64,000 nucleotides of DNA. Source: a phage. The stretch is from the sequence record PX068455.1; one strand, 5' to 3'. Positions 386-41,544 of this stretch are shown here, piece after piece. The notes beneath the pieces were generated by a model. That model did no database searches. It was not told the DNA's origin and saw nothing but the letters and a program-made list of their open reading frames with translations. A program made the translations under genes and the position numbers. Position 1 is the first letter of the stretch. Each line of letters starts with the position of its first letter.

Positions 386-2368
386 TTATTTGATGTTATT
401 CTTTGTATCAATCAGTTCACGGTATTCAATCATAGCAGGAGTGTCCCAATATTTCAAGCCTACATGCTTCAAAAGTGGATATTTCTTTTCCAATCTTGCA
501 ATATAGGCCTTCCCGCACTTAACCCGGTTGGCGATTAAGATTTTGGCACGATGATTTAGCTCACCGTACTTCCACGTGGTGCTACCTTCCCACTTGTGAA
601 AATGTGGCCGATAACTTCCAAAATCCTGCATGGGGATAATTTTACCTAACTGTCTGTACAGGCTGTCATATGAAGTTTCATTTGCTGCGCGAGTTAGTAA
701 GAATTTCCAAGCATCCTCTTTCAACAAATGTTCCACATTCTTCTCTGTAACATATTGGCAATCAGGATCAGTCCAAAGCAGACGAGATTCCGACACCAGG
801 TACAGATCTTCCCCTTCAGGAATCTGGAGTGCCGCACGCACACGGTCATAATCTTGCTGGTAGATGTTGCTCATCTGCCCTAGCCAACAACTTCCGCGTT
901 GGATATCCCCCTCATACGGTATGCAGTGCTTAATCTTCCTGAACTCTGCCTTAGTAATACGCTCACGCCGGAAGTAACCATCCTTCTCAAGTTTTTTAAC
1001 CCAATAGCCTGGTTCGTAACGGGTTTTGGTTTCACCTTTCTTCGTAGGTCGGCGTGGAAGCTCCGATAACAATTTGACCGTATCTGCAAAAAACGGATGG
1101 TGTGCCGCCTCTTTAAACTCTTTCACCAGATCCGTGTTACGGCAATAGAAAACGTTGCGTCCGGTAATCTCGCTTAAGTAGTTACACTTATTCCGGTTAT
1201 ATTTGCCGTCTCCGTCGTTAAATACTAAATAAACTCCCCGTAAGAATTCTACCTTTCCGTAGCAGGCGTAACCTATGCGGCCTTTATTTAAGCCGCCAGC
1301 GAAGATCTCGCAGTCCCCCAAATTTCCTAGCCCTGTTTCTTCCCAGCGGTCATACATAAAATTCTTACCGAAGATGTGCCCGAACACTCCACTGTTCTTC
1401 ATCATCTCGCGTGCTTCTGAGGATGTTTTTGCTGTCTCCAGTTCTGCAACAACTTCTGCTCCACGAAGGCGAATGCCTTCTTTGACAAAAGCTTCCAAAC
1501 GCTCTTGGAATCCACCATCGTCGTGACCTTCTATGGTCCATTCACGCCCTGGGTTAATATTGCAATCTCCGATAGGGATCTCTACACAAATTGCAGGATA
1601 ATCTATTAGTGTCTCCAGGAACTTAGAACGGTAAGGTTGGTGACCCATTACCACACGACTCTCGTCAGAGCTGGTATAACCCTTCAGGATGGTCATTTTC
1701 CAACCATCCTTCTCGTAGTGATACTGCGCCTCAACCTTGTCACCTTCCAGCATCTTACTGGTCATAGGGTCGGTAACGGTAAACGGAAACTTTGCATAGC
1801 GTAGGCATGACGCAATAGCAGTGCGATATTTCAGGACATGCTCTTTCTTAACATGGAACTGAACTTTTACCCCGTTGTGCTCTTCAGTCTTCCGCTCGCG
1901 GATCTTGGTAACGTTTGGGATACCCTGATCCAAGAACAATAGATATGTGCTTTCAACACCATTGTGCACACTGATAACATCGAAAGTGTCCACCATGCTG
2001 AACGGAGCCTTTGAACCAACACCTTTATTACCTACCAGAGCGTTGCTGTTGCGCTTGGTTGACTCCCCGAGGTTCATGAAAGTGTTGCGGACCATCTCTT
2101 CTGACATGCCCAATCCAACGTCCTGCACAAAGAAGTATGGTTCAAGGTCTGTAGGGGAGTGAATGATGATCGGTACATCACCCCGTCCAGACTCAACATG
2201 AGAGTCCACAGCATTGAAGATTGGTTCACGGCAGCTTGCCAGCACCTTATCTTCGTAAATCCCTTTAATGATTAGCCCAAAAGTCTCTTTGTTCAGAGAA
2301 ATTGAGCCCCTGGTGACCTCCATATTTCCGGTTAGTACTGCTTTAGTTTCATTACTGTTTACAATCAT
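386..2368 (-). CDS. Hsp90/GHKL-family ATPase domain protein
   Basis: 660-aa ORF; N-terminal Bergerat-fold motifs in HtpG-like order and spacing: ETFGLIIKGIY..REPIFNAVDS (ExxxNAxD), DVGLGM (DxGxGM), GNKGVGSKA (GxxGxG); C-terminal 450 aa unassigned. Confidence 0.6.
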   Translation of the reverse strand: MIVNSNETKAVLTGNMEVTRGSISLNKETFGLIIKGIYEDKVLASCREPIFNAVDSHVESGRGDVPIIIHSPTDLEPYFFVQDVGLGMSEEMVRNTFMNLGESTKRNSNALVGNKGVGSKAPFSMVDTFDVISVHNGVESTYLLFLDQGIPNVTKIRERKTEEHNGVKVQFHVKKEHVLKYRTAIASCLRYAKFPFTVTDPMTSKMLEGDKVEAQYHYEKDGWKMTILKGYTSSDESRVVMGHQPYRSKFLETLIDYPAICVEIPIGDCNINPGREWTIEGHDDGGFQERLEAFVKEGIRLRGAEVVAELETAKTSSEAREMMKNSGVFGHIFGKNFMYDRWEETGLGNLGDCEIFAGGLNKGRIGYACYGKVEFLRGVYLVFNDGDGKYNRNKCNYLSEITGRNVFYCRNTDLVKEFKEAAHHPFFADTVKLLSELPRRPTKKGETKTRYEPGYWVKKLEKDGYFRRERITKAEFRKIKHCIPYEGDIQRGSCWLGQMSNIYQQDYDRVRAALQIPEGEDLYLVSESRLLWTDPDCQYVTEKNVEHLLKEDAWKFLLTRAANETSYDSLYRQLGKIIPMQDFGSYRPHFHKWEGSTTWKYGELNHRAKILIANRVKCGKAYIARLEKKYPLLKHVGLKYWDTPAMIEYRELIDTKNNIK

Positions 2369-2865
2369 TTATTGCGCTCCTTGTAGTAGATATGACTCCC
2401 GAACTGAGCTGTCCTCTGCATCTTTTTTGCCCATTTCGGTCGTACTTTGGTTGTATGGTAGTGTGTTGCTCCACCTGTTATGTCCATAGCCATGTATGCA
2501 ACATGGTTGTTATTATAGACCTTTAGAAGCATCTTTGCAAGACTTTTAGCGTGATCCCATGAATCTTTTTCTGTCACCTTAAAAGTTTTGCCGTGGTTTG
2601 TCCACGAAAACTGGTTAGGTTGGTAGACAATCTTTCTTATGGTGTCTGGGTATTTGGGGTGAGATTTCCTGTTTAGGGTGGCAAACCCAGATGCCAGCAT
2701 ACCCATCGTGCCATCCCCTCTAGCTTCCCTGTAGATATTGCATGCTAGAATGTTTTCCTTAGTATCTGATGGCTTGCAAGTATGGTATACTTTTTGTTTT
2801 GGTGCTGCAACAACAGGCAGCGATAAAAATGCGCTCAAAATAATAGCAAAGATCTTAATTTTCAC
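2365..2865 (-). CDS. secreted cell-wall hydrolase, SleB-like (candidate lysin)
   Basis: 166 aa, GTG start; N-terminal signal-peptide-like segment KIFAIILSAFLSLPVVAAP; SleB-type motifs NIYREARGDG and QPNQFSW. Confidence 0.65.
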   Translation of the reverse strand: MKIKIFAIILSAFLSLPVVAAPKQKVYHTCKPSDTKENILACNIYREARGDGTMGMLASGFATLNRKSHPKYPDTIRKIVYQPNQFSWTNHGKTFKVTEKDSWDHAKSLAKMLLKVYNNNHVAYMAMDITGGATHYHTTKVRPKWAKKMQRTAQFGSHIYYKERNK

Positions 2866-2878
2866 AATAACTCCAAAT

Positions 2879-2902
2879 AGAAAATCCCCGCCGAAGCGGG
2901 GG
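2879..2902 (-). terminator. intrinsic terminator, CCCCGC-UUCG-GCGGGG hairpin plus U-tract
   Basis: Perfect 6-bp GC stem with UUCG tetraloop on the minus-strand transcript, followed by AUUUU; lies between 2915..3295 and 2365..2865. Confidence 0.6.
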
Positions 2903-2914
2903 AGGTCTTAGAAA

Positions 2915-3295
2915 TTAATCGTAGTGTGCCAAAATCTCTCCATCGTTGCAAGTTCCCTCTACAAAGTTATGAAGATTCATGCACTCATCTTGATAGAAGA
3001 ATTTACCGCTTTTCAGCCGTAAGCCAAACAACTCCGCATCTCCACGATGGCAAGCCTCTACAAGTTCATAGATTTCATACGGCAACTCTCCGTCGTCATG
3101 GAAGAACCCAGCCTTATCGTTGACATAGATGAAGAAATAATCACTGCTGTCGCAAGCGTCCAATATTTTAAACCAGATTTCATCTACATCTTTTTCTCGG
3201 ATATCGATCACGCAAGTGGAGCTGCATTCGTACTCCTTCTCCGGCTCCTCGGTCAATACCACCAGGTAGTTTCCCCGCTTACCTACTTTAGCCAT
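2915..3295 (-). CDS. hypothetical protein
   Basis: 126-aa ORF tightly packed in the minus-strand operon; no motif recognised. Confidence 0.4.
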   Translation of the reverse strand: MAKVGKRGNYLVVLTEEPEKEYECSSTCVIDIREKDVDEIWFKILDACDSSDYFFIYVNDKAGFFHDDGELPYEIYELVEACHRGDAELFGLRLKSGKFFYQDECMNLHNFVEGTCNDGEILAHYD

Positions 3296-21456: not shown

Positions 21457-22503
21457 TTAAGCATAAGATATAGTGATCCATTGACCGTTTACAAGTTTTT
21501 GGATAGCACCTGTCCAGTAATCACCTTGATAAGGGTGTTTATAAGCGTAGTTACCAGAGCACATCACATGTCCAGGGTAGACTCTTGACTCTCTGTAGGT
21601 GGTTTTGAAACGGTTTGCTATCCTTACATCGTCAACCCCTCTACTGGGCATAGGGACAGTAAGGTTACCACTACCGTCTGCGCTGTTACCGTTTACCCTG
21701 CGGACCACGTTTCTTCCACCAACGGTTGCATATTGGCCTCTAACGGTTTCATCGTTACAATCAACTCTTCCACCTATTTGAGCGCTTCCGCAGGATTGTT
21801 GTCCGTTAACAGTGGCTCTTGGTATCGTGACCGCATTGGCATTTGCAGAGGAACTTTTTGCATCGTTGCATTCAAGATTTCCTTGGATAGCCAGTCTTGC
21901 ACGGTTGGCAGTTATAGCATTGAGCTTCATAGCCGAAAACACAGGCTGCCCACCAGAAGGTTGAAATCTCCAACGGAACCCGTCTATTTGGTGAGAAGGA
22001 TCATCAAGGTCTGTGCCGTCAGCACCACCGATGTTGTCCATAATCCAGAAATCCATCGTCGTCTTGTCTGGCGTTATGGTGGTATATATTGCCGCACTGT
22101 CTGTTGACGCAGATGCAAACTCGATTCTTTGGAGACCTAAAGTTTGAGTCTGAGTCATTATGTCTCCAGACTTGTCAACATATAGATCGTCCATTTCTTC
22201 AGGTGAGTATACATTGAGAACTTGACGTGCAGCAGCTTTGTCTGGAACGTCTGCTAGATTATTAGTGACCCTTAAGAATCTATTATCCCATCCTGGGACA
22301 ACATCTTCTGTTAAATGCTTCAACCACGCAGAAAGCATGTGAAGTTCAAAGTTAACAACTTCACATGCCATTCTTTGTGTCATATCCCAACCTTTCAATC
22401 TCTCTTCTTTTTTTGGTTGAGACTTATTCAACTCTCCCGTATTTTCAAGCACAACATCCTGATTGGCCCAAATATCAAGAGGGATAACTGGTTTAGTCAT
22501 CAC
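21457..22503 (-). CDS. tail fibre protein (paralog B)
   Basis: 348 aa; conserved ends shared with 23515..24555 (N-term PLDIWANQD..KGWD, C-term QKLVNGQWITISYA); divergent centre. Confidence 0.6.
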   Translation of the reverse strand: MMTKPVIPLDIWANQDVVLENTGELNKSQPKKEERLKGWDMTQRMACEVVNFELHMLSAWLKHLTEDVVPGWDNRFLRVTNNLADVPDKAAARQVLNVYSPEEMDDLYVDKSGDIMTQTQTLGLQRIEFASASTDSAAIYTTITPDKTTMDFWIMDNIGGADGTDLDDPSHQIDGFRWRFQPSGGQPVFSAMKLNAITANRARLAIQGNLECNDAKSSSANANAVTIPRATVNGQQSCGSAQIGGRVDCNDETVRGQYATVGGRNVVRRVNGNSADGSGNLTVPMPSRGVDDVRIANRFKTTYRESRVYPGHVMCSGNYAYKHPYQGDYWTGAIQKLVNGQWITISYA

Positions 22504-22915: not shown

Positions 22916-23500
22916 TTAGAGGGTAGGTCGCTCCGGGAAGAAAATGTCAGGGGCTTTAGATGTATCTATTTCAAGAAGTTTTACCCTGTACATTTTCAAA
23001 TCTCTGATGTTACGTTTCTGGTCATCAGTAAGATCATATTCAAGGTCAATCATGTCTTGATAGGCACCAATTCTAGCAGTAGCCCAAGCAAGTTCTGTCT
23101 CTATGACACCCTCTGCCTGTTGAACAAAGAATTCATTGTCTGTGACAAATTCATCACCAACTAAACGCAAAGCGTCGTGGTGAAGCATAATGTTTTCTGG
23201 TACCTCTTCTTTTTTGGCGATAACCACACGAAGACCTGGAGCAGGCCATAAGGCATCAGGTTCTTCTGTAGATGTCTTAAGAATTCCCTTCTCGTCAACA
23301 AGTAGGAAGATACAACCTGGATTTTCTTGTCGCAATGTTCGTGACTGCACATACCAATCGCCATCATCATTACGTAAAAAATACCCAGTGTATGCGGTGT
23401 AATCCTCAACCTCTTGAGGGGTCAGCTCCTTGGTTTCCTTGTTGGCGTGGTATTCGCCAGATCCCGGTTGGTAAAGTTTAAACTCTTGAAGTATTTTCAT
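22916..23500 (-). CDS. tail fibre assembly protein (Tfa-like chaperone)
   Basis: 194 aa directly downstream of a fibre gene; C-terminal YRVKLLEIDTSKAPDIFFPERP resembles the Tfa signature. Confidence 0.5.
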   Translation of the reverse strand: MKILQEFKLYQPGSGEYHANKETKELTPQEVEDYTAYTGYFLRNDDGDWYVQSRTLRQENPGCIFLLVDEKGILKTSTEEPDALWPAPGLRVVIAKKEEVPENIMLHHDALRLVGDEFVTDNEFFVQQAEGVIETELAWATARIGAYQDMIDLEYDLTDDQKRNIRDLKMYRVKLLEIDTSKAPDIFFPERPTL

Positions 23501-23514
23501 GCTAGTCCTCCGAT

Positions 23515-24555
23515 CTATGCATAATTAACAGTGATCCATTGACCGTTTACAAGTTTTTGTAAAGGTCCTGCCCAGTAAGTTGAACCACGCATCTCTTTTT
23601 TGTCACCGAAATGCCAGCCTGTGACAACGTAGCCGTTGCGGATTGGAGATTCAGAAACGCCGTCCACAAGTCTTGCACCGATTCTGATGTCTTGCACACC
23701 TGTCTGCGGGATAGTGATCGTTACATCACCGTTACCGTTAGCCGTCACTCCGTTCACAGAGCGAACCACATTTCTGTTACCGACAACACAGTGCTGGCTT
23801 CTTACAACCATACTGTCACAACTTGCACCACCATTAACATATACTGACCCAGCCGTCAATTGACTAGCCACATTGCAGTTGGTGAATGTTGCTGTATTAC
23901 TGATAGTAAGGTTATTACACCTCATGTTATCGACAACTTCAACATTGCCTACCACTTTCAACAGCGCACGGTTAGCCGTGATCGCGTTAAGGTACATCAA
24001 AGTGAACTCTGGATTAATATCCGGCTGAGTTGGCTGGAATCTCCAACGAAACGCATCTACTGTAGATGTACCGCCATCATCAAACGACCCGGTATTATCA
24101 CTTAACCCAAAGTCGAGAGTTGTCTTATCTGGGCCAATAGTCGTCTCTATCCAAGCCTTATCTGTCTCGGCAGCTTTAAAGTTGATACGTTGCAAACCCA
24201 AGGGGCCTGTCATTGTATCACCTGTAACTTTTACATACCTGGCGTCTGCCTCTTCCTTGGTAATAATCCCAAGGTTTCTACGGGCAACAGGGATGTTCAA
24301 AAGATCACTCAAGTTATTATCACGTACCAGATAACGGCCTTCTTGAGCGGGGATCTGCTCGTCAGCAATATATTTTGCCCAAGTTCCGAGCATATTGAAA
24401 ATATAGTTAAGTTCTTCACATGAGGGCTTTTGACCAAGATCCCAACCTTTTCTCCACAAATCATCAATCGGGCGTAGCCTGTTCTGTCTGTGGGTGTTAG
24501 GCAGAACCTGATCCTCCTCTGCCCAAATCTCTAATGGAAAACTAGGTTTTGACAT
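23515..24555 (-). CDS. tail fibre protein (paralog A)
   Basis: 346 aa; GDTMTGPLGL collar-like motif; paralog of 21457..22503. Confidence 0.6.
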   Translation of the reverse strand: MSKPSFPLEIWAEEDQVLPNTHRQNRLRPIDDLWRKGWDLGQKPSCEELNYIFNMLGTWAKYIADEQIPAQEGRYLVRDNNLSDLLNIPVARRNLGIITKEEADARYVKVTGDTMTGPLGLQRINFKAAETDKAWIETTIGPDKTTLDFGLSDNTGSFDDGGTSTVDAFRWRFQPTQPDINPEFTLMYLNAITANRALLKVVGNVEVVDNMRCNNLTISNTATFTNCNVASQLTAGSVYVNGGASCDSMVVRSQHCVVGNRNVVRSVNGVTANGNGDVTITIPQTGVQDIRIGARLVDGVSESPIRNGYVVTGWHFGDKKEMRGSTYWAGPLQKLVNGQWITVNYA

Positions 24556-24567
24556 TTTATCTCCTGA

Positions 24568-26640
24568 TTATGAGAAGTCTGGCGGGACAACATCTTCTAC
24601 ATACCCTTTCAGAGCAACCTGCCCCATATGAAGCACGGTAGAATCTCTAGCGGTAACAGTGATGCTGTCAGACATTACTTGCGGGTATGCCCACACATAC
24701 TGTTTTACCTCAGGGTATCTATACTCTATAGTTGCCATGTTTCCGCAAATACATCTCCATAAAAATTCTTGGTAATTCCTAGTTGGGTCATAGCCATATA
24801 CCGGAGCAAGCTCTTTACTAGGAACGAACCCTGCAAGGTATTGTATTTCAGACGGTTGCCAACCTAACCTAACGATAGGTATGTTTACAGACTCTTTTGC
24901 CTTTTCAATACCTCCCTGCATCACCCAATCGTAGCACTCGGTGCAGAAGAAATCAAGAGCACCTGCTTCCTTTTTATATTGGTCAGCAAGGTTCAGCTTT
25001 TGTGTAAGCTCGGTTTCCATAATGGTTGGGAAAAACAGCAAAGCTGTCATCTGAGCTGATGCAGCGTGTGCCTTTACTGCCTTTGAAATAGCCGCAATAC
25101 GAGCGCCAAGCTTACCACGACAAAATGCCACATACTTGTCGTAAACACCGCCAGTTTTAGGATCGTCAATAGTCCCAATATCTAATGCATACTCACCTGT
25201 CTCATCATAAAACGCCTGCTTTGTAGGGTAATCATAAATACAAGGCCTACGAGTATCGGTATTGTACCACCACCACGGTTCACCAACCTGCATAATCACT
25301 GGCAGGTTGTTTCTCATAGCGGCTGATGCAAAATTCTTAAATACTGCAGTAAGGAAATTCATACCCTCTTCAATGGTTGGAGATAGGAGGTAGCTACAAG
25401 GTGTATACCCTGTTTTAGCGTAGTTATCGTTCCAGTCTCTTTGGGTCCATTCCAACGGGCAGGCATCGCTGAAAAGCTCAAAACTTACAGATTGCATAAC
25501 GTCGAAGTTATGTCGTTTGGCATTGTACATAAAATCATCATGCCATTTATAAGCTGCAGCGTTTAGCGCTCCTGTTCTGTTTATAGACCATTGGGTTCCG
25601 GACCATGTGTAGTCATAATAATGACTCATACCAACATAATGGTTTATGGTTCCGGTATATCCCAGACGCTTGATATTGTTCAACACCCTTAAAGGAGAGA
25701 CGTTCCACATATCGTCATATGCGGTGCAGATCCCAACGTCGTGCTCTCTCACCTGAATATTATTAAGTTGCATCATTTTCCAGCCTGTGTCTGGCTGAAG
25801 CAAATCTAGGCGCAACTCACACTCTACATTTTCCGTTCTCGGGTCTGTGCTATTACTTACCCAGTCTTTAGGCATGAGTGGTATTAAAATCCTTCTCACC
25901 TGCCGAGGATCAACACCCATCATGTTGTTGTTCTGGTCCATCCCGACGCAGTCCTCGAAATCAATATGAATTTCTGCAACATTCTTATCCTCTGAGATGC
26001 TGACAGCATATTGAGCTAAAGGAACATAGATGATTGTGCCATCAACAAGGTCTACAGTCATAATCATCTTTTCAGGAGTGGAGAAGTTGCTGGCGTTGGT
26101 TATTGACATTCTGAACCAAAGTTTGGTGTTTCTCATCTCATAGTGATCATCAAACCCAATACCGAAATGGTCATACTTGTCAACTGTTTCCCAAATGCAT
26201 CCAGCCATACCCCCATATGTTCTTGACACTAAACGGTTAATACAACAGTTGTTATCTGCAACAATACAGGTACTTTCAGTCTGCTGAGTAGTTGTAACCC
26301 AATATCTTGGGTGGAACATTCTCTCCTCGACAGTATCCCAAGATATCCTGTCAAGATTCTCATCTGAAACTATTGTACATTTCGCCCTTTGTGTCCCGAT
26401 CATCACCCCTTGAGATTTTGATGAAAACTCCATAAAGAAGCTTCTTGGCAACCTGTTGGGTAATTTGTCAACAATTTCCACCGGAATCTCAATACTGGTT
26501 GCCCCGACTGGGATAGTTACATCGCCCTCAACATGATCATAATCCCTACCAGGAACGGCAGTATCCTGAACTGTGCGGTAATGAAACTGCGCAGCCATTG
26601 TAGAGTAATCACGGTAAGGTTTAAAAACAGCTGTTGCCAT
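24568..26640 (-). CDS. virion structural protein, tail-fibre associated (function unknown)
   Basis: 690-aa ORF in the fibre cluster; no confident domain. Confidence 0.4.
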   Translation of the reverse strand: MATAVFKPYRDYSTMAAQFHYRTVQDTAVPGRDYDHVEGDVTIPVGATSIEIPVEIVDKLPNRLPRSFFMEFSSKSQGVMIGTQRAKCTIVSDENLDRISWDTVEERMFHPRYWVTTTQQTESTCIVADNNCCINRLVSRTYGGMAGCIWETVDKYDHFGIGFDDHYEMRNTKLWFRMSITNASNFSTPEKMIMTVDLVDGTIIYVPLAQYAVSISEDKNVAEIHIDFEDCVGMDQNNNMMGVDPRQVRRILIPLMPKDWVSNSTDPRTENVECELRLDLLQPDTGWKMMQLNNIQVREHDVGICTAYDDMWNVSPLRVLNNIKRLGYTGTINHYVGMSHYYDYTWSGTQWSINRTGALNAAAYKWHDDFMYNAKRHNFDVMQSVSFELFSDACPLEWTQRDWNDNYAKTGYTPCSYLLSPTIEEGMNFLTAVFKNFASAAMRNNLPVIMQVGEPWWWYNTDTRRPCIYDYPTKQAFYDETGEYALDIGTIDDPKTGGVYDKYVAFCRGKLGARIAAISKAVKAHAASAQMTALLFFPTIMETELTQKLNLADQYKKEAGALDFFCTECYDWVMQGGIEKAKESVNIPIVRLGWQPSEIQYLAGFVPSKELAPVYGYDPTRNYQEFLWRCICGNMATIEYRYPEVKQYVWAYPQVMSDSITVTARDSTVLHMGQVALKGYVEDVVPPDFS

Positions 26641-34440: not shown

Positions 34441-37400
34441 TTACTTCAATTTCTCTTGCAATCCAGTAACAACCTCTGTCAATTTTTTAACCTGCTCCTC
34501 AAGGGCGGTTATTTTATCGTCCTGTTCCCTGCAAACCTGGACAAGCAAGCCTGTTACAGCTGCGTAGTCAACGTTATAGAACCTTTCCTCAGTCATTAAA
34601 GGAATGCCGTCTTGAGTAGGACCTTCTATTTCCTTCCTTTTCACGAAAGATCCTACTGCCTCTGGCAATGCTTCCATAACCTCTTGAGCAATCACGCCTG
34701 CATAAGGCATACCATTCTCTTTCAAGGTGTAGGTATAGCCTTTCATCTTTCTAATTGCTTCCAGAGCGTTAGGTATGACCTCTATGTTATCCTTCAGGTC
34801 CCTATCGGAACTTTGACTAACAGTAGTACATTCTACCGTGCCGTTGACAGCAAAATATCTTGATTTAGCCTCATCTGCCTTAGCACCACAGTGGAATACC
34901 CAGCTGGCGACTGTTGAGTTATCACTTATCTGAAACTCCAGCACATTCTTCCTATCTGCGCCATTACCCCAATAGTACAACCTACCTGTATTAGAAGGCA
35001 TGTTGGAAGTGTTGGTAACATCCGCACCACCACCTGTGTGTATTGTGAACTCCGGTTCAAGATTGGATCCTTGAGTTTTTAAAGTGATACCTTTACCACC
35101 AAGCTGCTGCCAATGGCCCCATGTGAAAACACCACCTATCGTTGTTCCATAACGCAGGAATTTTTCTCCAAGATATGTCGTATATTCCTGTACGCAACTC
35201 TCTGGAACGTTGGCATAGTTTCTGTAGACAACGAGAGTACCTGCCTGGGAGCATGGGTAGTTTTTATCAAGTGCGGCCTGAGCATTAGCCTCCTGATGAT
35301 AAAAACCCTCTCTATCCCCTTTGTAGTCGTTAAGGTCATTAGTCCCCAGCCCTTGACCACGGTGCTGAATAACTTTGTTCCATGCCCTATGGTTACCACC
35401 CTCGATAGATCTGGTGTATAGCTGATCAAGGCGACCAGCCATTTGGAAGGCATAGTTTCCAGAAAACGCCACAGACAGCCCACCAACAACCATCGAACCT
35501 TCAGGTCCGTTGACATTGCCTGCCATTATTTTAGAAGGGTTGTTAGGACCAAACTGGTTGTTCCAGTCTGCACCAGTATGGCATACAAAACCACCTGGAG
35601 CTGAGAAAGTACCATCCTTGTTGAAGTTGTAGAATCTATGAGCTGTGCCTACAACATCGCGAACAATAACTTGACCAGCTTCCGGAGTAGATCTGAACTC
35701 TGCCTGGCCTTTGAGACCAGCACCATTACCGCATTTAGAGGTAAACGTACCGTTAGTCAGATCCTCTGTCCCATCAGATGCACACTGGAATCCTGCATTA
35801 GAGAATAACGCCTTTCTAGGACTGCCGTAGCACAAATAGTCAAGACCGTCTGCCCATAGCTCGACTTTTGGCATATTCATTTTGCTCATCACAGCATAGC
35901 GTTCAGCAGTGCCTATATAGTGCCACTGTGTGCCGCCGCCAGTGTAGAACCCTGAAGTACCTTTAAAATCAACAATAGGTCTGGTATTGGTGTTGTTATC
36001 TCCAAGAATGGCAAGATTCAAATCTGCTGACTGAAGAGGTGCAACGAACTTAACCCCATCCTGATTGTCTGTTACAGAGCCAACCTGGTAATCTTGCTCT
36101 CTGGTAAACACTTCGACAACATTTCTACTTGCGTATATGCTGACAGGGAAAGCACGAGCCTCTACATAGAAAGCAACATACTCTTGTTTACCCCTTGTTG
36201 GAGCAACCATCCCAAGAAGTGCTTTTTCATTCTGGTAGAAATTTACTACCCCGTAGAAAGCGTCCCCTCTGTCTGTCCAACCACCAGTTCTATAGTGACA
36301 CTGTAAGGTAGCACAGTTCATAGGGTCACCGCCGGATGACGATCTGGTAACTATGGTAATATCAGTGCCAGTTGCTGGAGCATAGTACGGATCTGTTCTA
36401 ACGATAATTGGGTAGTATTTCCCATCTTCCATCCCTGCGGTTCTTGGCAGTGTTAAGAAGTCTTTTACACCTGCTGCTATAGGAACTTTGAACAGATTCT
36501 GAGCATCTGCTAAAGTTGTGGCTCCAGTACCACCTGCGGCGTGAGGTAAAGGTTCCCACTTGGCCTTCCGGTTGTTATAAACACCCCATTCCAAACTGCC
36601 GTTACCGGATTCGTCCATCCCGCCATCCCAGATAACCATCTTGGCGGCTTTCTTGGACCCCCAAAAGCCTCTTTCTGCTCCTGAACTACGGATCCACTCC
36701 CCAAGTCCCCAGTTTGTCAGCTGACCAGTAAGATCCCCAACCTGCATATATTTAGGACAGTCTAATACACCGTCCTCGCGGAAACCTAAATATCTATGAG
36801 TTTCAGATCCTTTTGCACCTTTGTGGAGGTGGATTGTCAACCAAGCCTTATTGTCGTTTCTTACCTCAGAATAGATCCTATAACCATGCTCAAGAATACC
36901 ATCAGTATTATATTTATCTCCATGGAGAATACCTGAGGCCGATTTAACATCTCCAGAGTATTGAGCTAAGTAAAGGTGCCCGAAGGCTGGCGAGTTGTTT
37001 TTACCAAGGCCGATATGAGATCTGAAAGTATCATCGTTACGAGGTCTGACCATCGGCTGCCATGCAGTCCACTGGTTTGTGTTGGCCTGATAGGTTCTCA
37101 AATACCAAACATCTACGTTAGAAAATGGATAGTATTCCTGACGACAACCTGTACCGCCGTTAGCATTGTTCTGCCAAACAATCAAGTGACCAGCACCAGA
37201 ACCTGCAGGGTAACCATTTGCCTCAGTTGCATAAGCAGTCATCGGCTGGTAGTATACGCCATCCTGATTACCAGTCAAGTTATTGATATTGAAATTTGGC
37301 TCAAGGGCTGCACGTTGCTTATAGAAAGCACCGATATTGATACGGACTCCAGCGGCATCTCTAGCCCCTGTGCCGCCTTGCTCTATAGCAAGAGGTTGCC

Positions 37401-38241
37401 ACGAAGCTGTTTGTTGGTTCCACATACCCCAACGGCCTGTTGCATCAAGCTGCAAGTACCCTGCCGTATTTAAATCATCTCCAGCACGGATAACTGTTCT
37501 TGTTGGGTTGTTTGCCTCTAGGCGTTTAAATTCATCACGAAGTGCTATTCTTTTCGTTGTTGCTACACCGTTGGTTACTGCAATGGTGTACATGGCTCCG
37601 GTGGTAGCGCCACGGAAAATACCATCAACAGTTGTAGTATCACGACGAGATACCACACCGTTCAGAAATTTTTCACCAGCTGCTACAGAAGGGTAGTTGG
37701 TAGTTCTTCCCTCTTCAATAACTGCAGGGCCAACAAAGTTATCGAGGTGAATAACATCGCCTACAGTGTGCACTGTACCAAAATCTACACGCTGTGCAAG
37801 TGCTTTGGCATCGTTAGCTGTCTGAACAGTAACATCCATTACATCCTGGACAGACTGCCCTTCGGCTGTCATGATCATAGATGCGCCAATGGTAGATTCC
37901 AGCTCCTCCCTTAATGACGGATCTGTATATACCATCCATGCAGCGTCAGTAATCCCACCATCGGAGTACGGTGAAGACAGTGCAGGAACAGTGTGTGGAA
38001 ATTCGCCTTTCCAACGTAGGTAGAGGTCTTCCTCTTCGAAGTAGGCAAAATCCATTGGGCCGTTTAACTTACCACCTTCCTTAAAGGAGATTACATGAGA
38101 AACAGTCCCATCAACATGGACAACATCGCCAATTTTTACACGACGGGTCAGGTCTGGTTGTTGAACAACCAGGTAATCATCCTCTGTCACTGCGGTAGTG
38201 GCAGGAAGAGATTCAATTCTGACAACTTTAATATCAGCCAT
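34441..38241 (-). CDS. tail fibre/tailspike with C-terminal intramolecular chaperone (peptidase S74-like) domain
   Basis: 1266 aa; C-terminal SDRDLKDNIE...GYTYTL...GVIAQEV...coiled coil matches the self-cleaving chaperone signature; N-terminal 100 aa homologous to 40876..41544. Confidence 0.65.
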   Translation of the reverse strand: MADIKVVRIESLPATTAVTEDDYLVVQQPDLTRRVKIGDVVHVDGTVSHVISFKEGGKLNGPMDFAYFEEEDLYLRWKGEFPHTVPALSSPYSDGGITDAAWMVYTDPSLREELESTIGASMIMTAEGQSVQDVMDVTVQTANDAKALAQRVDFGTVHTVGDVIHLDNFVGPAVIEEGRTTNYPSVAAGEKFLNGVVSRRDTTTVDGIFRGATTGAMYTIAVTNGVATTKRIALRDEFKRLEANNPTRTVIRAGDDLNTAGYLQLDATGRWGMWNQQTASWQPLAIEQGGTGARDAAGVRINIGAFYKQRAALEPNFNINNLTGNQDGVYYQPMTAYATEANGYPAGSGAGHLIVWQNNANGGTGCRQEYYPFSNVDVWYLRTYQANTNQWTAWQPMVRPRNDDTFRSHIGLGKNNSPAFGHLYLAQYSGDVKSASGILHGDKYNTDGILEHGYRIYSEVRNDNKAWLTIHLHKGAKGSETHRYLGFREDGVLDCPKYMQVGDLTGQLTNWGLGEWIRSSGAERGFWGSKKAAKMVIWDGGMDESGNGSLEWGVYNNRKAKWEPLPHAAGGTGATTLADAQNLFKVPIAAGVKDFLTLPRTAGMEDGKYYPIIVRTDPYYAPATGTDITIVTRSSSGGDPMNCATLQCHYRTGGWTDRGDAFYGVVNFYQNEKALLGMVAPTRGKQEYVAFYVEARAFPVSIYASRNVVEVFTREQDYQVGSVTDNQDGVKFVAPLQSADLNLAILGDNNTNTRPIVDFKGTSGFYTGGGTQWHYIGTAERYAVMSKMNMPKVELWADGLDYLCYGSPRKALFSNAGFQCASDGTEDLTNGTFTSKCGNGAGLKGQAEFRSTPEAGQVIVRDVVGTAHRFYNFNKDGTFSAPGGFVCHTGADWNNQFGPNNPSKIMAGNVNGPEGSMVVGGLSVAFSGNYAFQMAGRLDQLYTRSIEGGNHRAWNKVIQHRGQGLGTNDLNDYKGDREGFYHQEANAQAALDKNYPCSQAGTLVVYRNYANVPESCVQEYTTYLGEKFLRYGTTIGGVFTWGHWQQLGGKGITLKTQGSNLEPEFTIHTGGGADVTNTSNMPSNTGRLYYWGNGADRKNVLEFQISDNSTVASWVFHCGAKADEAKSRYFAVNGTVECTTVSQSSDRDLKDNIEVIPNALEAIRKMKGYTYTLKENGMPYAGVIAQEVMEALPEAVGSFVKRKEIEGPTQDGIPLMTEERFYNVDYAAVTGLLVQVCREQDDKITALEEQVKKLTEVVTGLQEKLK

Positions 38242-38276
38242 TCTTTCTCCTGAAAGGGGGCAAACAGCCCCCTATG

Positions 38277-40874
38277 TTAAAGGTACAATCCACGGTATTG
38301 AGCATAGAGGCCCAGACCGCGAAGGATTTCGCCAGAGTGATAGCCTACCGGATCAGAAACTGCCCAGCAGCCGTTTAAAACATTATCCCCATTAATGAAG
38401 TGGTGCTTTTGCAGTAGCTTCACACAGGCTTCTACAACAATGTCTATTTGAGGTATTGTCTCTGAATACCCACACAGACCTAGCCAGCAGCAACCTGCAA
38501 GCCATTCACCTACCACCCACATCCTGTCTCCTCTGTCTTGATAAGAATATCCCCCAGAGGTGTTAAAGTCTGTAGGCAGATTTCCTGAATGAGATGACTG
38601 GAATCTGTTGAGGAACCATGCCCATTTCTGGCAGAACAGGAATAGTCTTTCATCAACAGGTTCTTTATGTTTCTTGAGCTCATATATTGTGCGGCACGCA
38701 GCAACAAAAGATCTTGACTGGAGCTTAGAGTTATCTACCATCTCCCACCAACCAGTCAACCCTTCATTACCTCTTTGCCATACATAACGTGAGGCAACTG
38801 GACCCTCTGTCTTAAATGTATTATTATACCAGACTTGAGCGTCATACAGAAAGCCTATTGTATTTGACAATCTATGGCGATCTATGTTTTCTGCACCCAT
38901 ACAGTAGACTGCTGGGTATTGCATGCCAGGGTAGGGCCAATTTGGCCTTTCCTCTAAGAGATAGTTTTCCTTATCTATCACCTTTCCGGCAGGGAACACC
39001 CCTGGCGTGTGCCTGTATGCACCTTGCTTGTAGTTTCTGACATAGCAATCGCCAACCTTAGCGGTTGATTCTGTCTTGCTTGCCATCCATACGCTAAACC
39101 AGATTAGATAAGCATCCCTGTCTGCAATATAGAATTGCGGCAGCGTGTTGACGCAGTACAGATCAAACAAGCCATTACCTATCTGCCTGTCGCTTAGGCT
39201 GAAATCTACAGAGGTGAGCCCCTTAGGATTAGCAAAGAAAGGTTTAATCTCTTCTTCGGTGTGATGAGGTTGTGTCGGATCTAGTTTGAAATCTCCTAGA
39301 GTAAGAGTTTCTGTTATCCATTGTCCATTAGTGGCATATAGATCAGCATACCATAACCACCTGTCTTTGTCAAGAAATTTGACCCTTACCATCTCATCAT
39401 CTGATCGATAAGTTACTGAGTTTAAAGAAATCTCTCTTCCAAAATTGAAAGTTACTTTACCTCTTGCTATATTACAACGGGTGAAGTTGTCAGAGTGGTT
39501 GTAAATGTCGGTATCATACTGCATACCAACACCAGCACCACCGCTTACGGCAATGTTTTCCTCTTTAGGTAAGAGATACGGATTACCGTCTTTACCAACC
39601 ACCTCTACGAAATCAGTAACCTTGGCAACTATTTCTGTTACCTCTGCACCTCCAAAAGGGACACCTATCCTGTACTGTTTTTTGTTATTGTTACCATCAT
39701 TAAGGATGAAATGCGGCTGGAACAGAACACCTTCTCCTCCGAAATTCATAACAATTTCAGCATCTCTACCTATTTTGTATGTAGTCCCTTTTTGAATTAT
39801 TTCGCAAGGCTGGCGTGCGTTCATTCTAAAATTGATATACCCGTCACTGTCCCTGCTCATGACAGGAACTGTTCCTGCAACAAGACAAGCACCATCTGTG
39901 AACGGTGCCTTAATCAACGTGGTCTTTCTAAACAGCTTGTCGTAGGCGTTTATATCACTGAAATTAAGCAACTTGTTGTAAGACTGTTTAAACGCGGTGT
40001 AATACTTTTCCTCACCTGTCAAGGTGTAGAGTTGATAACAAGCGTCACACCACATTTCTTCCCCGTCCAACTCCGGGGCCTGATTATCTGCAACCACGTT
40101 TATAGGATTTACAATTACAGGGGATCCTGCAGGTATCACCGATCCACCCTGCTCTTGAGGTAATCTTACACAATAGGTCACCTTGTGGCTGCCTGTAACA
40201 CCCTTATCTTGTAATTGGATTGTGCCGAACTCTACAGATGTATGACCACTGTCGGCTATGCTACCGTTAGCCCAATAGCGGTTACCATCCCATGCTATAT
40301 ACCACTCAACCCACCAACTTAATCCGGATGTTGTCCAATCCGGGTTAGCATCTGTGCCGCCGTAAACATCAGAGTCTACAGTGTTTCTTCCTAACACACC
40401 GTTATACGCTTGGAATGCCTTGTCCAGGTATTCCCCCCATGTCGGAGATCCAGCTGGGATTTTTCCTCTACCATTGGTAAAAGACACCACCACATCTTTA
40501 AACCCACCATGTGATGGAACCCCGTCTGTGGATAGAGGGTAGTGGGACAATCTTTGCATTTTACTTTCTACAGCATATGCACCCAGAAGATGACTATTGT
40601 AAGCTTCCCAAGCATCTTTTGCCCTATCCAGATAGAAATCGCTTTTCGATGCCCTATATGCTTCAATGTATCCCAGAATCAACACAGCTTGGGACTCATG
40701 CATTGCCCAATCATTATTTATCTTATTACCTGCCCACCCTGCAGCTATAAGACCATCAGGGTTTACTAGCTTATTTTGTGTAGGGGTGTTGGTAATACCT
40801 GTGTTGTTATCGAGGCACTTCCTGTGCCCCTCAATCATCTGAAATACGTTATCAATGTTGTGTTGAATACGCAT
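38277..40874 (-). CDS. tailspike enzymatic subunit, putative glycoside hydrolase/depolymerase
   Basis: 865 aa; N-terminal helical region (ESQAVLILGYIEAYRASKSDFYLDRAKDAWEAY) suggestive of an alpha/alpha-barrel glycosidase; ATG one nt after stop of the adaptor ORF with AGGAG RBS. Confidence 0.4.
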   Translation of the reverse strand: MRIQHNIDNVFQMIEGHRKCLDNNTGITNTPTQNKLVNPDGLIAAGWAGNKINNDWAMHESQAVLILGYIEAYRASKSDFYLDRAKDAWEAYNSHLLGAYAVESKMQRLSHYPLSTDGVPSHGGFKDVVVSFTNGRGKIPAGSPTWGEYLDKAFQAYNGVLGRNTVDSDVYGGTDANPDWTTSGLSWWVEWYIAWDGNRYWANGSIADSGHTSVEFGTIQLQDKGVTGSHKVTYCVRLPQEQGGSVIPAGSPVIVNPINVVADNQAPELDGEEMWCDACYQLYTLTGEEKYYTAFKQSYNKLLNFSDINAYDKLFRKTTLIKAPFTDGACLVAGTVPVMSRDSDGYINFRMNARQPCEIIQKGTTYKIGRDAEIVMNFGGEGVLFQPHFILNDGNNNKKQYRIGVPFGGAEVTEIVAKVTDFVEVVGKDGNPYLLPKEENIAVSGGAGVGMQYDTDIYNHSDNFTRCNIARGKVTFNFGREISLNSVTYRSDDEMVRVKFLDKDRWLWYADLYATNGQWITETLTLGDFKLDPTQPHHTEEEIKPFFANPKGLTSVDFSLSDRQIGNGLFDLYCVNTLPQFYIADRDAYLIWFSVWMASKTESTAKVGDCYVRNYKQGAYRHTPGVFPAGKVIDKENYLLEERPNWPYPGMQYPAVYCMGAENIDRHRLSNTIGFLYDAQVWYNNTFKTEGPVASRYVWQRGNEGLTGWWEMVDNSKLQSRSFVAACRTIYELKKHKEPVDERLFLFCQKWAWFLNRFQSSHSGNLPTDFNTSGGYSYQDRGDRMWVVGEWLAGCCWLGLCGYSETIPQIDIVVEACVKLLQKHHFINGDNVLNGCWAVSDPVGYHSGEILRGLGLYAQYRGLYL

Positions 40875-40875
40875 C

Positions 40876-41544
40876 TTAGATAGCTCCTGCGATAATCAGT
40901 GCCCCGTACCAAGTTAACCCGTTGTCGTAGGTTTCCAACTTGAAAATATCTGTTGCACCAGCTGTAAATGTTAGGATAGGATCTCTTCCGTAGGACCATT
41001 TAACATTGTCAGGCCAATAGACTTTGTTGCCGCCAGAGGTCTGAGTAATGCATACGGTTATAGTTCTCGCCACCCCTTCAAGACCTTCTGTTTGATTTTC
41101 AAAAGAGATTGTGGTATTTGAAGTTAGTCGAACTTTAAAGGTATCCGCAACTTCAAGATCCATATCAAGCTGACCACCGATAGATCCGTAATCAACTATT
41201 CTGCCATAAGAAGTTGCAGCAAGCTCACCAAAAACAGACCATGCATTTGCAGACACACCCCCAGCACCCTCTACAGTGGAGTCTGGGAGGATTATTTTAG
41301 GATAATCCCCGTTCCACGTGTAGTAGCGCTTAGTCTCTGGGTCATAAGCAAAGTCCTTCTTGCTCTTAAGATAGCCACCCTCTGTGAAATAGACTATCTT
41401 AGTAATGCTAAGATCGTTGACAACATCGTCAATCTTAGCCTTTCTTGTCCCATCAGTCTGGTTGACAACCAAGAAGTCATCACTCAGGACTGTTTCTGCA
41501 TCTTCAAGATCTGGAATTGGTATTGTAGGATAAGCTACAGCCAT
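40876..41544 (-). CDS. tail fibre/tailspike N-terminal adaptor-domain protein
   Basis: 222 aa; DDFLVVNQTDGTRKAKIDDVV...FTEGGYLKSKKDFAY aligns with the N-terminus of 34441..38241. Confidence 0.5.
   Translation of the reverse strand: MAVAYPTIPIPDLEDAETVLSDDFLVVNQTDGTRKAKIDDVVNDLSITKIVYFTEGGYLKSKKDFAYDPETKRYYTWNGDYPKIILPDSTVEGAGGVSANAWSVFGELAATSYGRIVDYGSIGGQLDMDLEVADTFKVRLTSNTTISFENQTEGLEGVARTITVCITQTSGGNKVYWPDNVKWSYGRDPILTFTAGATDIFKLETYDNGLTWYGALIIAGAI

Follow-up and report, generated by a model that had tools for sequence, protein, structure and literature searches.

Positions 34,441 to 41,544 of a 64,000-nucleotide (nt) stretch of phage DNA (record PX068455.1; the whole stretch is referred to as the window) contain three consecutive genes, encoding a protein of 222 amino acids (aa), gp43, a protein of 865 aa, gp42, and a fibre of 1266 aa, gp41. 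The analysis of this region suggests that gp43 is quite probably a pure adaptor and gp42 a separate, anchorless, enzyme-like chain held by the C-terminal domain of gp43 (the C-domain), the two together making up a two-chain receptor-binding or depolymerising appendage. As judged from sequence comparison, gp43 plus gp42 is an old, mobile two-gene cassette, for which two chains are the standard state and which is present in hundreds of very different phages. We infer the physical binding of the two chains and its stoichiometry, as well as the enzymatic activity of gp42 and its substrate.

By its sequence the window is that of an rV5-like Vequintavirus, a coliphage. The 7.1-kb stretch with the three genes is 100% identical to Escherichia phage ECP2303, its identity to over 110 further rV5-like Vequintavirus genomes is 92-98%, and at least 116 independently sequenced rV5-like genomes match the region at 92-100%. 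The three open reading frames (ORFs) were assigned to rV5 gp43 (222 aa), gp42 (865 aa) and gp41 (1266 aa) by size and order. All three proteins were detected when purified rV5 virions were analysed by mass spectrometry (PMC3606486). The features discussed below are as follows.

40876..41544, minus strand: gp43-like adaptor protein, 222 aa, whole ORF including stop (ORF list and translation; phrog_7760 'tail fiber protein', E=5e-119)
41410..41544, minus strand: gp43 residues 1-45, N-terminal anchor motif (BLASTP of gp43 against gp41; also in the phi92-like gp140 homologue)
41224..41409, minus strand: gp43 residues 46-107, PF18668 Tail_spike_N beta domain of the TSP1/Gp66 type (Pfam, E=2e-10, 41 bits, cut-off 25)
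40879..41217, minus strand: gp43 residues 110-222, the C-domain, all-beta with an Asp-box-like end (DNGLTWYG); proposed docking site of gp42
40872..40888, minus strand: gp43/gp42 gene junction, with AGGAG, TAA, one spacer base and ATG (read from the sequence)
38277..40874, minus strand: gp42-like 865-aa protein, predicted (alpha/alpha)6 barrel, glycosidase-like, with beta domains inserted at about residues 124-247 and 330-616
34441..38241, minus strand: gp41-like lateral tail fibre, 1266 aa, whole ORF including stop (labelled lateral tail fibre in BASEL phage Bas58)
37924..38241, minus strand: gp41 residues 1-106, anchor motif and PF18668 as in gp43 (BLASTP, Pfam)
34444..34809, minus strand: gp41 residues 1145-1266, Peptidase_S74 intramolecular chaperone domain (Pfam PF13884, E=7e-15; motif)

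Results and discussion

gp43 is made up solely of the anchor motif, the PF18668 domain and the C-domain; that is, it has an anchor and no enzymatic or receptor-binding body, as in an adapter. Its N-terminus is shared with gp41. BLASTP aligned the two over 99 residues with one gap (38% identity, E=4e-18), and PF18668 matched residues 51-105 of gp43 with 41.0 bits and residues 46-103 of gp41 with 40.9 bits, in both cases above the gathering threshold of 25. This bears out a docking domain common to the two proteins, as claimed in an initial annotation made from the letters of the window, whose coordinates for the three ORFs (34441..38241, 38277..40874 and 40876..41544) are also exact. PDB sequence matches to the PF18668 part fall in the N-terminal regions of solved phage tailspikes and tail fibres (e.g. 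4oj5, 5w6f, 5w6h and 4qnl). The first 37 residues of a 157-aa protein of phi92-like phages also align with the N-terminus of gp41 (E=2e-8). When the other ORFs of the window were scanned, no further copy of the N-terminal module or of the C-domain was found.

The gp43 and gp42 ORFs occupy different frames and meet in the sequence ...GC AGGAG CTATC TAA G ATG. The AGGAG (40884-40888) lies 9 nt upstream of the ATG (40872-40874) and forms a Shine-Dalgarno sequence for gp42 within the last codons of gp43, while a single spacer base (40875) separates the stop codon TAA (40876-40878) from the ATG. The initial annotation had placed the stop 1 nt before the ATG and the AGGAG inside the end of the adaptor gene, with which this reading agrees. 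There is no homopolymer run or repeated-codon slippery motif in the junction. The same junction was found again in the rV5-like loci that were read and, as the region also repeats at 92-100% in the at least 116 independent genomes, the split is not a sequencing artefact.

The pair extends far beyond rV5-like phages. Homologues of gp42 were found by tblastn in 525 phage records and the C-domain (gp43 residues ~109-222) in 513; the counts per taxon are nearly the same and the coordinates adjacent. Seventy-one IMG/VR loci with a gp42 homologue were fetched and their ORFs scanned with a hidden Markov model (HMM) of the gp43 C-terminal domain. Wherever the upstream DNA suffices, the gp42 homologue is immediately preceded by an ORF that has the C-domain at its end, a few residues from the stop; the partner is missing only at contig-end loci, plus one doubtful partial match. 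The pairing was counted over about 65 IMG/VR loci, three GenBank phages and one Burkholderia prophage, and it is seen in the Aeromonas podovirus Atoyac15, the Klebsiella siphovirus KLB24 and a phi92-like BASEL phage as well as in that prophage.

In the 68 loci compared, which provide 30 distinct junction sequences, the spacing of the small and the large gene lies between -20 and +11 nt, TAATG and ATGA being the commonest arrangements, and no fused or in-frame small plus large gene occurs among them. Residues past the last C-domain (98-440 of them) are present in 9 of the top 150 C-domain representatives, none of which matches the gp42 profile. This pairing, the coupling and the absence of fusions across the loci suggest that the two-chain state is ancestral and general, and neither a local gene split nor a sequencing error. 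The initial annotation had described one of two receptor-binding proteins as split; taken as gene fission, this has to be given up. It had also proposed that relatives be checked for a fused version, which the 68 loci do not contain, and had named a single gene in the true sequence as an outcome that would refute it, which the match of the region at 92-100% in at least 116 independent genomes and the recurring junction of the rV5-like loci that were read speak against. No paper describing such a cassette was found in the literature, nor was anything found on Solidus gp83 or on six-hairpin glycosidase tail fibres.

The N-terminal part of the small protein varies with the phage type while the C-domain stays with the large gene. 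This part is PF18668 in rV5-like phages, PF03906 (the T7 tail-fibre N-terminal domain) in Atoyac15, a podovirus of the Autographiviridae, PF08400 (the prophage tail-fibre N-terminal domain) in the siphovirus KLB24, PF12571 in one IMG/VR locus, a SPRY domain in Burkholderia-type loci and the 45-residue anchor motif only in phi92-like phages. The N-terminal parts of 21 representative small proteins fall into 16 groups without detectable mutual similarity. In Atoyac15 the pair is flanked by the genes for internal virion protein D and the holin, at a site that corresponds to that of the tail-fibre gene in T7, and the T7 tail-attachment domain is on the small protein only. As there is no recognisable anchor on the large protein, and that of Atoyac15 is on the small one, the most straightforward interpretation is that the C-domain brings the large protein to the virion. 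In KLB24 (Klebsiella phage vB_KM5a1-KLB24, 4990..8820), a lambda-like siphovirus, the cassette lies between the tail tip assembly protein genes and the gene for the tip attachment protein J, an unusual site for a side-fibre module.

The large protein

gp42 matched no family in Pfam or NCBIfam, and on the large protein no Pfam-recognisable anchor was found in any phage type. Its N-terminus aligns from the first residues, including the start methionine, in all homologues. Structure prediction gives gp42 an (alpha/alpha)6 barrel into which beta domains are inserted; this type of barrel occurs likewise in epimerases, isomerases and terpene cyclases. By Pfam and NCBIfam, gp42 does not belong to a defined glycoside hydrolase family with a catalytic acid and base, and comparison with PDB sequences gave weak matches alone (~35 residues, E about 2e-3). 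The invariant acidic residues of the homologues include E60, D223, D270 and D678.

The name glycosidase would therefore be valid for gp42 at the level of the predicted fold only. No central parallel beta-helix, as in a classical trimeric tailspike, was found in gp42, and assignment as a beta-helix tailspike was rejected in favour of the predicted (alpha/alpha)6 barrel. Thus, where the initial annotation had an adaptor and a separately translated catalytic chain, the adaptor anatomy and the separate, glycosidase-like partner stand, on comparative evidence and virion proteomics (PMC3606486), while the enzymatic name shrinks to a statement about fold and the term tailspike is withdrawn.

In 87 phage records gp42 shows 99% identity or more, suggesting that its target glycan is probably conserved; according to Maffei et al., most of this locus is conserved. 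Two rearrangements were seen among the relatives. The large proteins of three loci (L059, L061 and L062) have an internal duplication of profile positions ~462-620, and the beta-domain segment of the large protein (profile positions 470-654) recurs in a second upstream ORF of ~510 aa (1696..3228) in two Erwinia phiEa21-4-like loci (L063 and L069).

The following mechanism can be proposed. The N-terminal ~107 residues of gp43, which is presumably a trimer like other proteins with the PF18668 module, would attach to the baseplate periphery or to another fibre. Coupling of the gp42 start codon to the gp43 stop would cause gp42 to be made in step with gp43, and gp42 would then dock on the ~105-aa C-terminal beta domain. 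In the resulting complex, the enzyme-like (alpha/alpha)6 barrel would form the head and act on a conserved surface glycan, by binding or by cleavage.

The C-domain family

A word-indexed homologue search gave no matches with the C-domain alone and only 4-6 close relatives with full gp43 and gp42. An exhaustive HMMER search with the C-domain (clusters at 50% identity, E<=1e-3) gave a family of 3,920 cluster representatives. The locus scan for the C-domain was built on a tighter alignment of 8 sequences, as one of 25 sequences had no conserved stretch. The C-domain had no match in Pfam, NCBIfam or PDB sequences. In 135 of the 150 best representatives, which span 113 to 2036 aa, it ends within 20 residues of the protein C-terminus. 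Three to five tandem copies are present in P0012 (2036 aa), P0009 (1705 aa), P0011 (1415 aa) and P0007 (450 aa), and P0137 and P0099 continue for 300-440 residues past the C-domain. Such multi-copy or extended proteins could be multi-socket scaffolds or natural fusions with the partner.

In 80 environmental phage loci from another branch of the family (L073-L152, IMG/VR), the C-domain is again C-terminal and a tightly coupled gene nearly always comes next, typically with a gap of -4 to +16 nt. This gene is not a gp42 homologue. Many of the partners share N-terminal motifs (MFSSNTSQVS, MFAASKT or MPLGAFKAxxLGAAG), which may be docking peptides, and they often carry ConA-like lectin, SPRY, DUF7483 or Gly-rich domains. 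These observations fit a general role in which the C-domain closes a proximal chain and carries a distal unit that comes from a gene of its own.

The best structural matches of the C-domain are fibre joints, not carbohydrate-binding modules. In the BASEL phages the small protein bears the label 'sialidase domain protein' (bas58_0025, 222 aa; bas62_0024, 157 aa). No match to a sialidase fold or family was found and this assignment was rejected; the likeliest source of the label is the Asp-box-like motif that closes the C-domain, which gives weak BNR matches and short local Foldseek matches to sialidases.

A wider reading, which is put forward tentatively as a serious possibility, is that the ~105-aa C-domain is a universal fibre-end docking domain, portable across myo-, sipho-, podo- and jumbo phages. 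It would form the end of a proximal anchor or shaft protein, and the protein encoded by the tightly coupled gene downstream would dock there to serve as the distal receptor-binding unit. For this partner, an (alpha/alpha)6 enzyme, a ConA-like lectin and proteins of the SPRY, DUF7483 or Gly-rich kind come into consideration. The pair gp140-gp141 or gp43-gp42 would then be one unassigned lateral fibre, e.g. fibre II of phi92.

Weighing the two-chain assignment

Several results weigh against gp43 as an adaptor that holds gp42 by its C-domain. The link of the C-domain to known docking domains is at the level of the modelled fold only, with moderate Z scores. The C-domain HMM showed no similarity to KP34 gp49 or K1-5 gp37, and hhalign gave a probability of at most 2% against the N-termini of CBA120 TSP4 and TSP2; with no such link at the sequence level, homology to T4gp10-like docking domains is unproven. 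Between two and five tandem C-domains are present in 29 of the 150 best representatives, which a carbohydrate-binding module would fit too. The correlation between C-domain identity and large-protein identity is only moderate (Spearman 0.35), and linkage could explain it. Conservation over residues 1-20 of gp42 (0.31) is below the average for the protein (0.41), and no short, hyper-conserved N-terminal docking peptide like that of known second receptor-binding proteins was found on gp42. Finally, the gp42 model is of medium confidence (predicted local distance difference test score, pLDDT, 65) and no catalytic residues could be identified, including among the invariant acids.

Some of these points would be accommodated if gp43 were a self-contained short fibre with the C-domain as its glycan-binding tip, gp42 being a separate virion enzyme attached in another way and the two genes travelling together through a shared receptor. 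The C-domain is at the extreme C-terminus, the usual site of fibre receptor-binding domains, its Asp-box-like motif resembles that of sialidases, it is repeated in tandem in some proteins, and no conserved docking peptide was found on gp42. Such a short fibre is nevertheless unlikely, since no anchor can be recognised on the gp42 homologues of any phage type and in Atoyac15 it is the small protein that bears the T7 domain, with the pair in the tail-fibre slot. Moreover, one HMM finds about 3,900 C-domain clusters, an unusual conservation for a receptor-binding tip selected by the host, and the fold resembles fibre joints rather than carbohydrate-binding modules.

It is considerably less probable that gp42 is not a stable structural partner but either helps gp43 or other fibres to assemble, as a factor or chaperone, or is an enzyme that the virion carries loosely. 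Genes just downstream of fibre genes are often chaperones, and many of the downstream ORFs in the wider C-domain family are small (110-325 aa). However, gp42 is present in purified rV5 virions (PMC3606486), is an 865-aa protein with a predicted glycoside-hydrolase-like (alpha/alpha)6 barrel, and is encoded in a genome that already has a classical Caudo_TAP fibre chaperone (22916..23500); the partners in the wider family bear lectin-like domains. That the ORFs, 1 nt apart and in different frames, are really one gene, whether because of an error in sequencing or assembly or because programmed frameshifting yields a fused tailspike, can practically be dismissed, given the 92-100% identity in the independent genomes, the repeated junction with its well-spaced AGGAG and no slippery motif, the separate genes of distant relatives with many junction types (spacers of +9 and +11 nt and overlaps of -20 nt among them), and the start methionine aligned in all large proteins.

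Comparison with known systems

gp43 as an adaptor with gp42 as its cargo can be compared with several systems. In T-even fibres the gp37 chain ends in a tip to which the adhesin gp38, encoded separately by the next gene, is bound as distal receptor-binding unit. The likeness to this pair is one of layout; the rV5 partner is a large enzyme-like protein and not a small adhesin, and some partners in the wider family are Gly-rich or lectin-like.

The established adapter or anchor-branch systems are K1-5/SP6 gp37, G7C gp66 with gp63.1, CBA120 TSP1-4 and the Klebsiella KP32 and KP34 groups, in the last two of which an anchor-only 'tail fiber' of ~300 aa holds a separately encoded depolymerase (PMC6872550). 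An anchor-only first protein with a separately encoded enzyme is established for K1-5 gp37, and for KP34 gp49 such an arrangement has been modelled (Latka et al. 2019, PMC6872550). K1-5/K1E/SP6 gp37 and KP34 gp49 with gp57 are like the rV5 pair in that a short, anchored, non-enzymatic first protein with a C-terminal docking domain (proposed in rV5) goes with a separate, anchorless enzyme, and the small protein of Atoyac15 (PF03906 plus C-domain, 283 aa) is laid out almost like KP34 gp49 (307 aa).

There are also clear differences. The proposed rV5 docking domain is from another sequence family than those of KP34 gp49 and K1-5 gp37. The genes of the rV5-type pair are always adjacent and translationally coupled, whereas the KP34 counterparts are 5-8 genes apart. 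The partner is a predicted (alpha/alpha)6-barrel protein in rV5 but a trimeric beta-helix in the KP34/K1-5 type, and the short conserved N-terminal peptide of that type is not found on the rV5 partner. The hub proteins of the branched tailspikes of CBA120 (TSP1-4) and G7C (gp66 with gp63.1) differ in having an enzyme of their own, which the rV5 hub protein lacks; in the case of CBA120 the profile comparison given above also found no homology of the C-domain to the N-termini of TSP4 and TSP2.

The apparent direct counterparts of gp43 and gp42 are gp140 and gp141 of phi92 (Justusliebigvirus). The phi92-like BASEL phage has a 157-aa small protein with the anchor motif and the C-domain (E=2e-30 to gp43) followed, with a 1-nt overlap, by a 958-aa gp42 homologue; unlike rV5 gp43, the small protein is without the PF18668 domain. 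A Salmonella phage record names its C-domain match 'Phi92_gp140'. In a 2026 cryo-electron microscopy paper on phi92, gp140 alone is listed as a fibre candidate, gp141 is unmentioned and fibre II is unassigned (PMC13450770).

The fibre gp41 and neighbouring genes

The other protein with the shared N-terminus, gp41, would be a second, independent fibre with the same type of attachment, maturing by predicted S74 autoproteolysis. Peptidase_S74 (PF13884) matched residues 1145-1196 with 55.5 bits (cut-off 22), and the first residues of this match form the motif SDRDLK, in which Ser1145 and Lys1150 provide the Ser-Lys dyad. The spacing of the two is presumably equal to that of the dyad in the K1F endosialidase. 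Cleavage is predicted at Ser1145 (codon 34807-34809), freeing a fragment of 122 aa. The self-cleaving C-terminal chaperone domain that had been predicted for this fibre is hence supported. Kropinski et al. noted that rV5 gp41 resembles the C-terminal domain of the endo-N-acetylneuraminidase of phage K1F (PMC3606486), and in the BASEL paper (Maffei et al.) gp41 is among the strongly variable fibre genes.

All genes here are on the minus strand, in the setting of a tail and baseplate module with the order tape measure, hub, central spike, 238-aa baseplate protein, 222-aa ORF, 865-aa ORF and 1266-aa ORF, beyond which there are more baseplate and fibre genes. Two ORFs of similar size at 21457..22503 and 23515..24555 (348 and 346 aa, minus strand) flank a 194-aa Caudo_TAP tail-fibre assembly chaperone (22916..23500, minus strand), which fits the description of Vequintavirus as having two paralogous short tail fibres plus a chaperone. 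Calx-beta, NCTSP_N and NCTSP TIM-barrel domains are present in a 690-aa protein (24568..26640, minus strand), which is thereby like the non-contractile sheath protein gp65 of phage N4. It is homologous to the fibre with a deacetylase domain for which phi92 gp142 stands as the example. In a 2026 preprint this fibre is assigned to the NGR glycan receptor. The possibility that gp42 is this NGR-binding deacetylase fibre was considered and rejected, as that fibre is the 690-aa N4 gp65-like protein.

Between 18 and 23 records labelled Campylobacter phage, host C. jejuni (among them MG065646 'Campylobacter phage D1', MG065674 'A140' and MG065639 'A150'), are 95-99% identical to rV5-like or phi92-like coliphages over this locus. 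Host mislabelling or contaminating coliphages seem more likely than genuine Campylobacter phages.

Conclusions

Which genes build which lateral fibres was described as 'far from clear' for Vequintavirinae and phi92-like phages (Maffei et al. 2021). Taking gp43-gp42 (phi92 gp140-gp141) as one two-chain unit gives a concrete and testable lateral-fibre assignment. Its (alpha/alpha)6-barrel partner would represent an unusual class of virion-borne enzyme-like protein with a glycan target that is probably conserved. More generally, a sequence signature for a site at which the product of the next gene docks would improve the prediction of receptor-binding complexes from genomes. As nature already swaps the anchor before the C-domain and the cargo after it, the C-domain is a natural plug-in point, and such a signature would offer it for host-range engineering.

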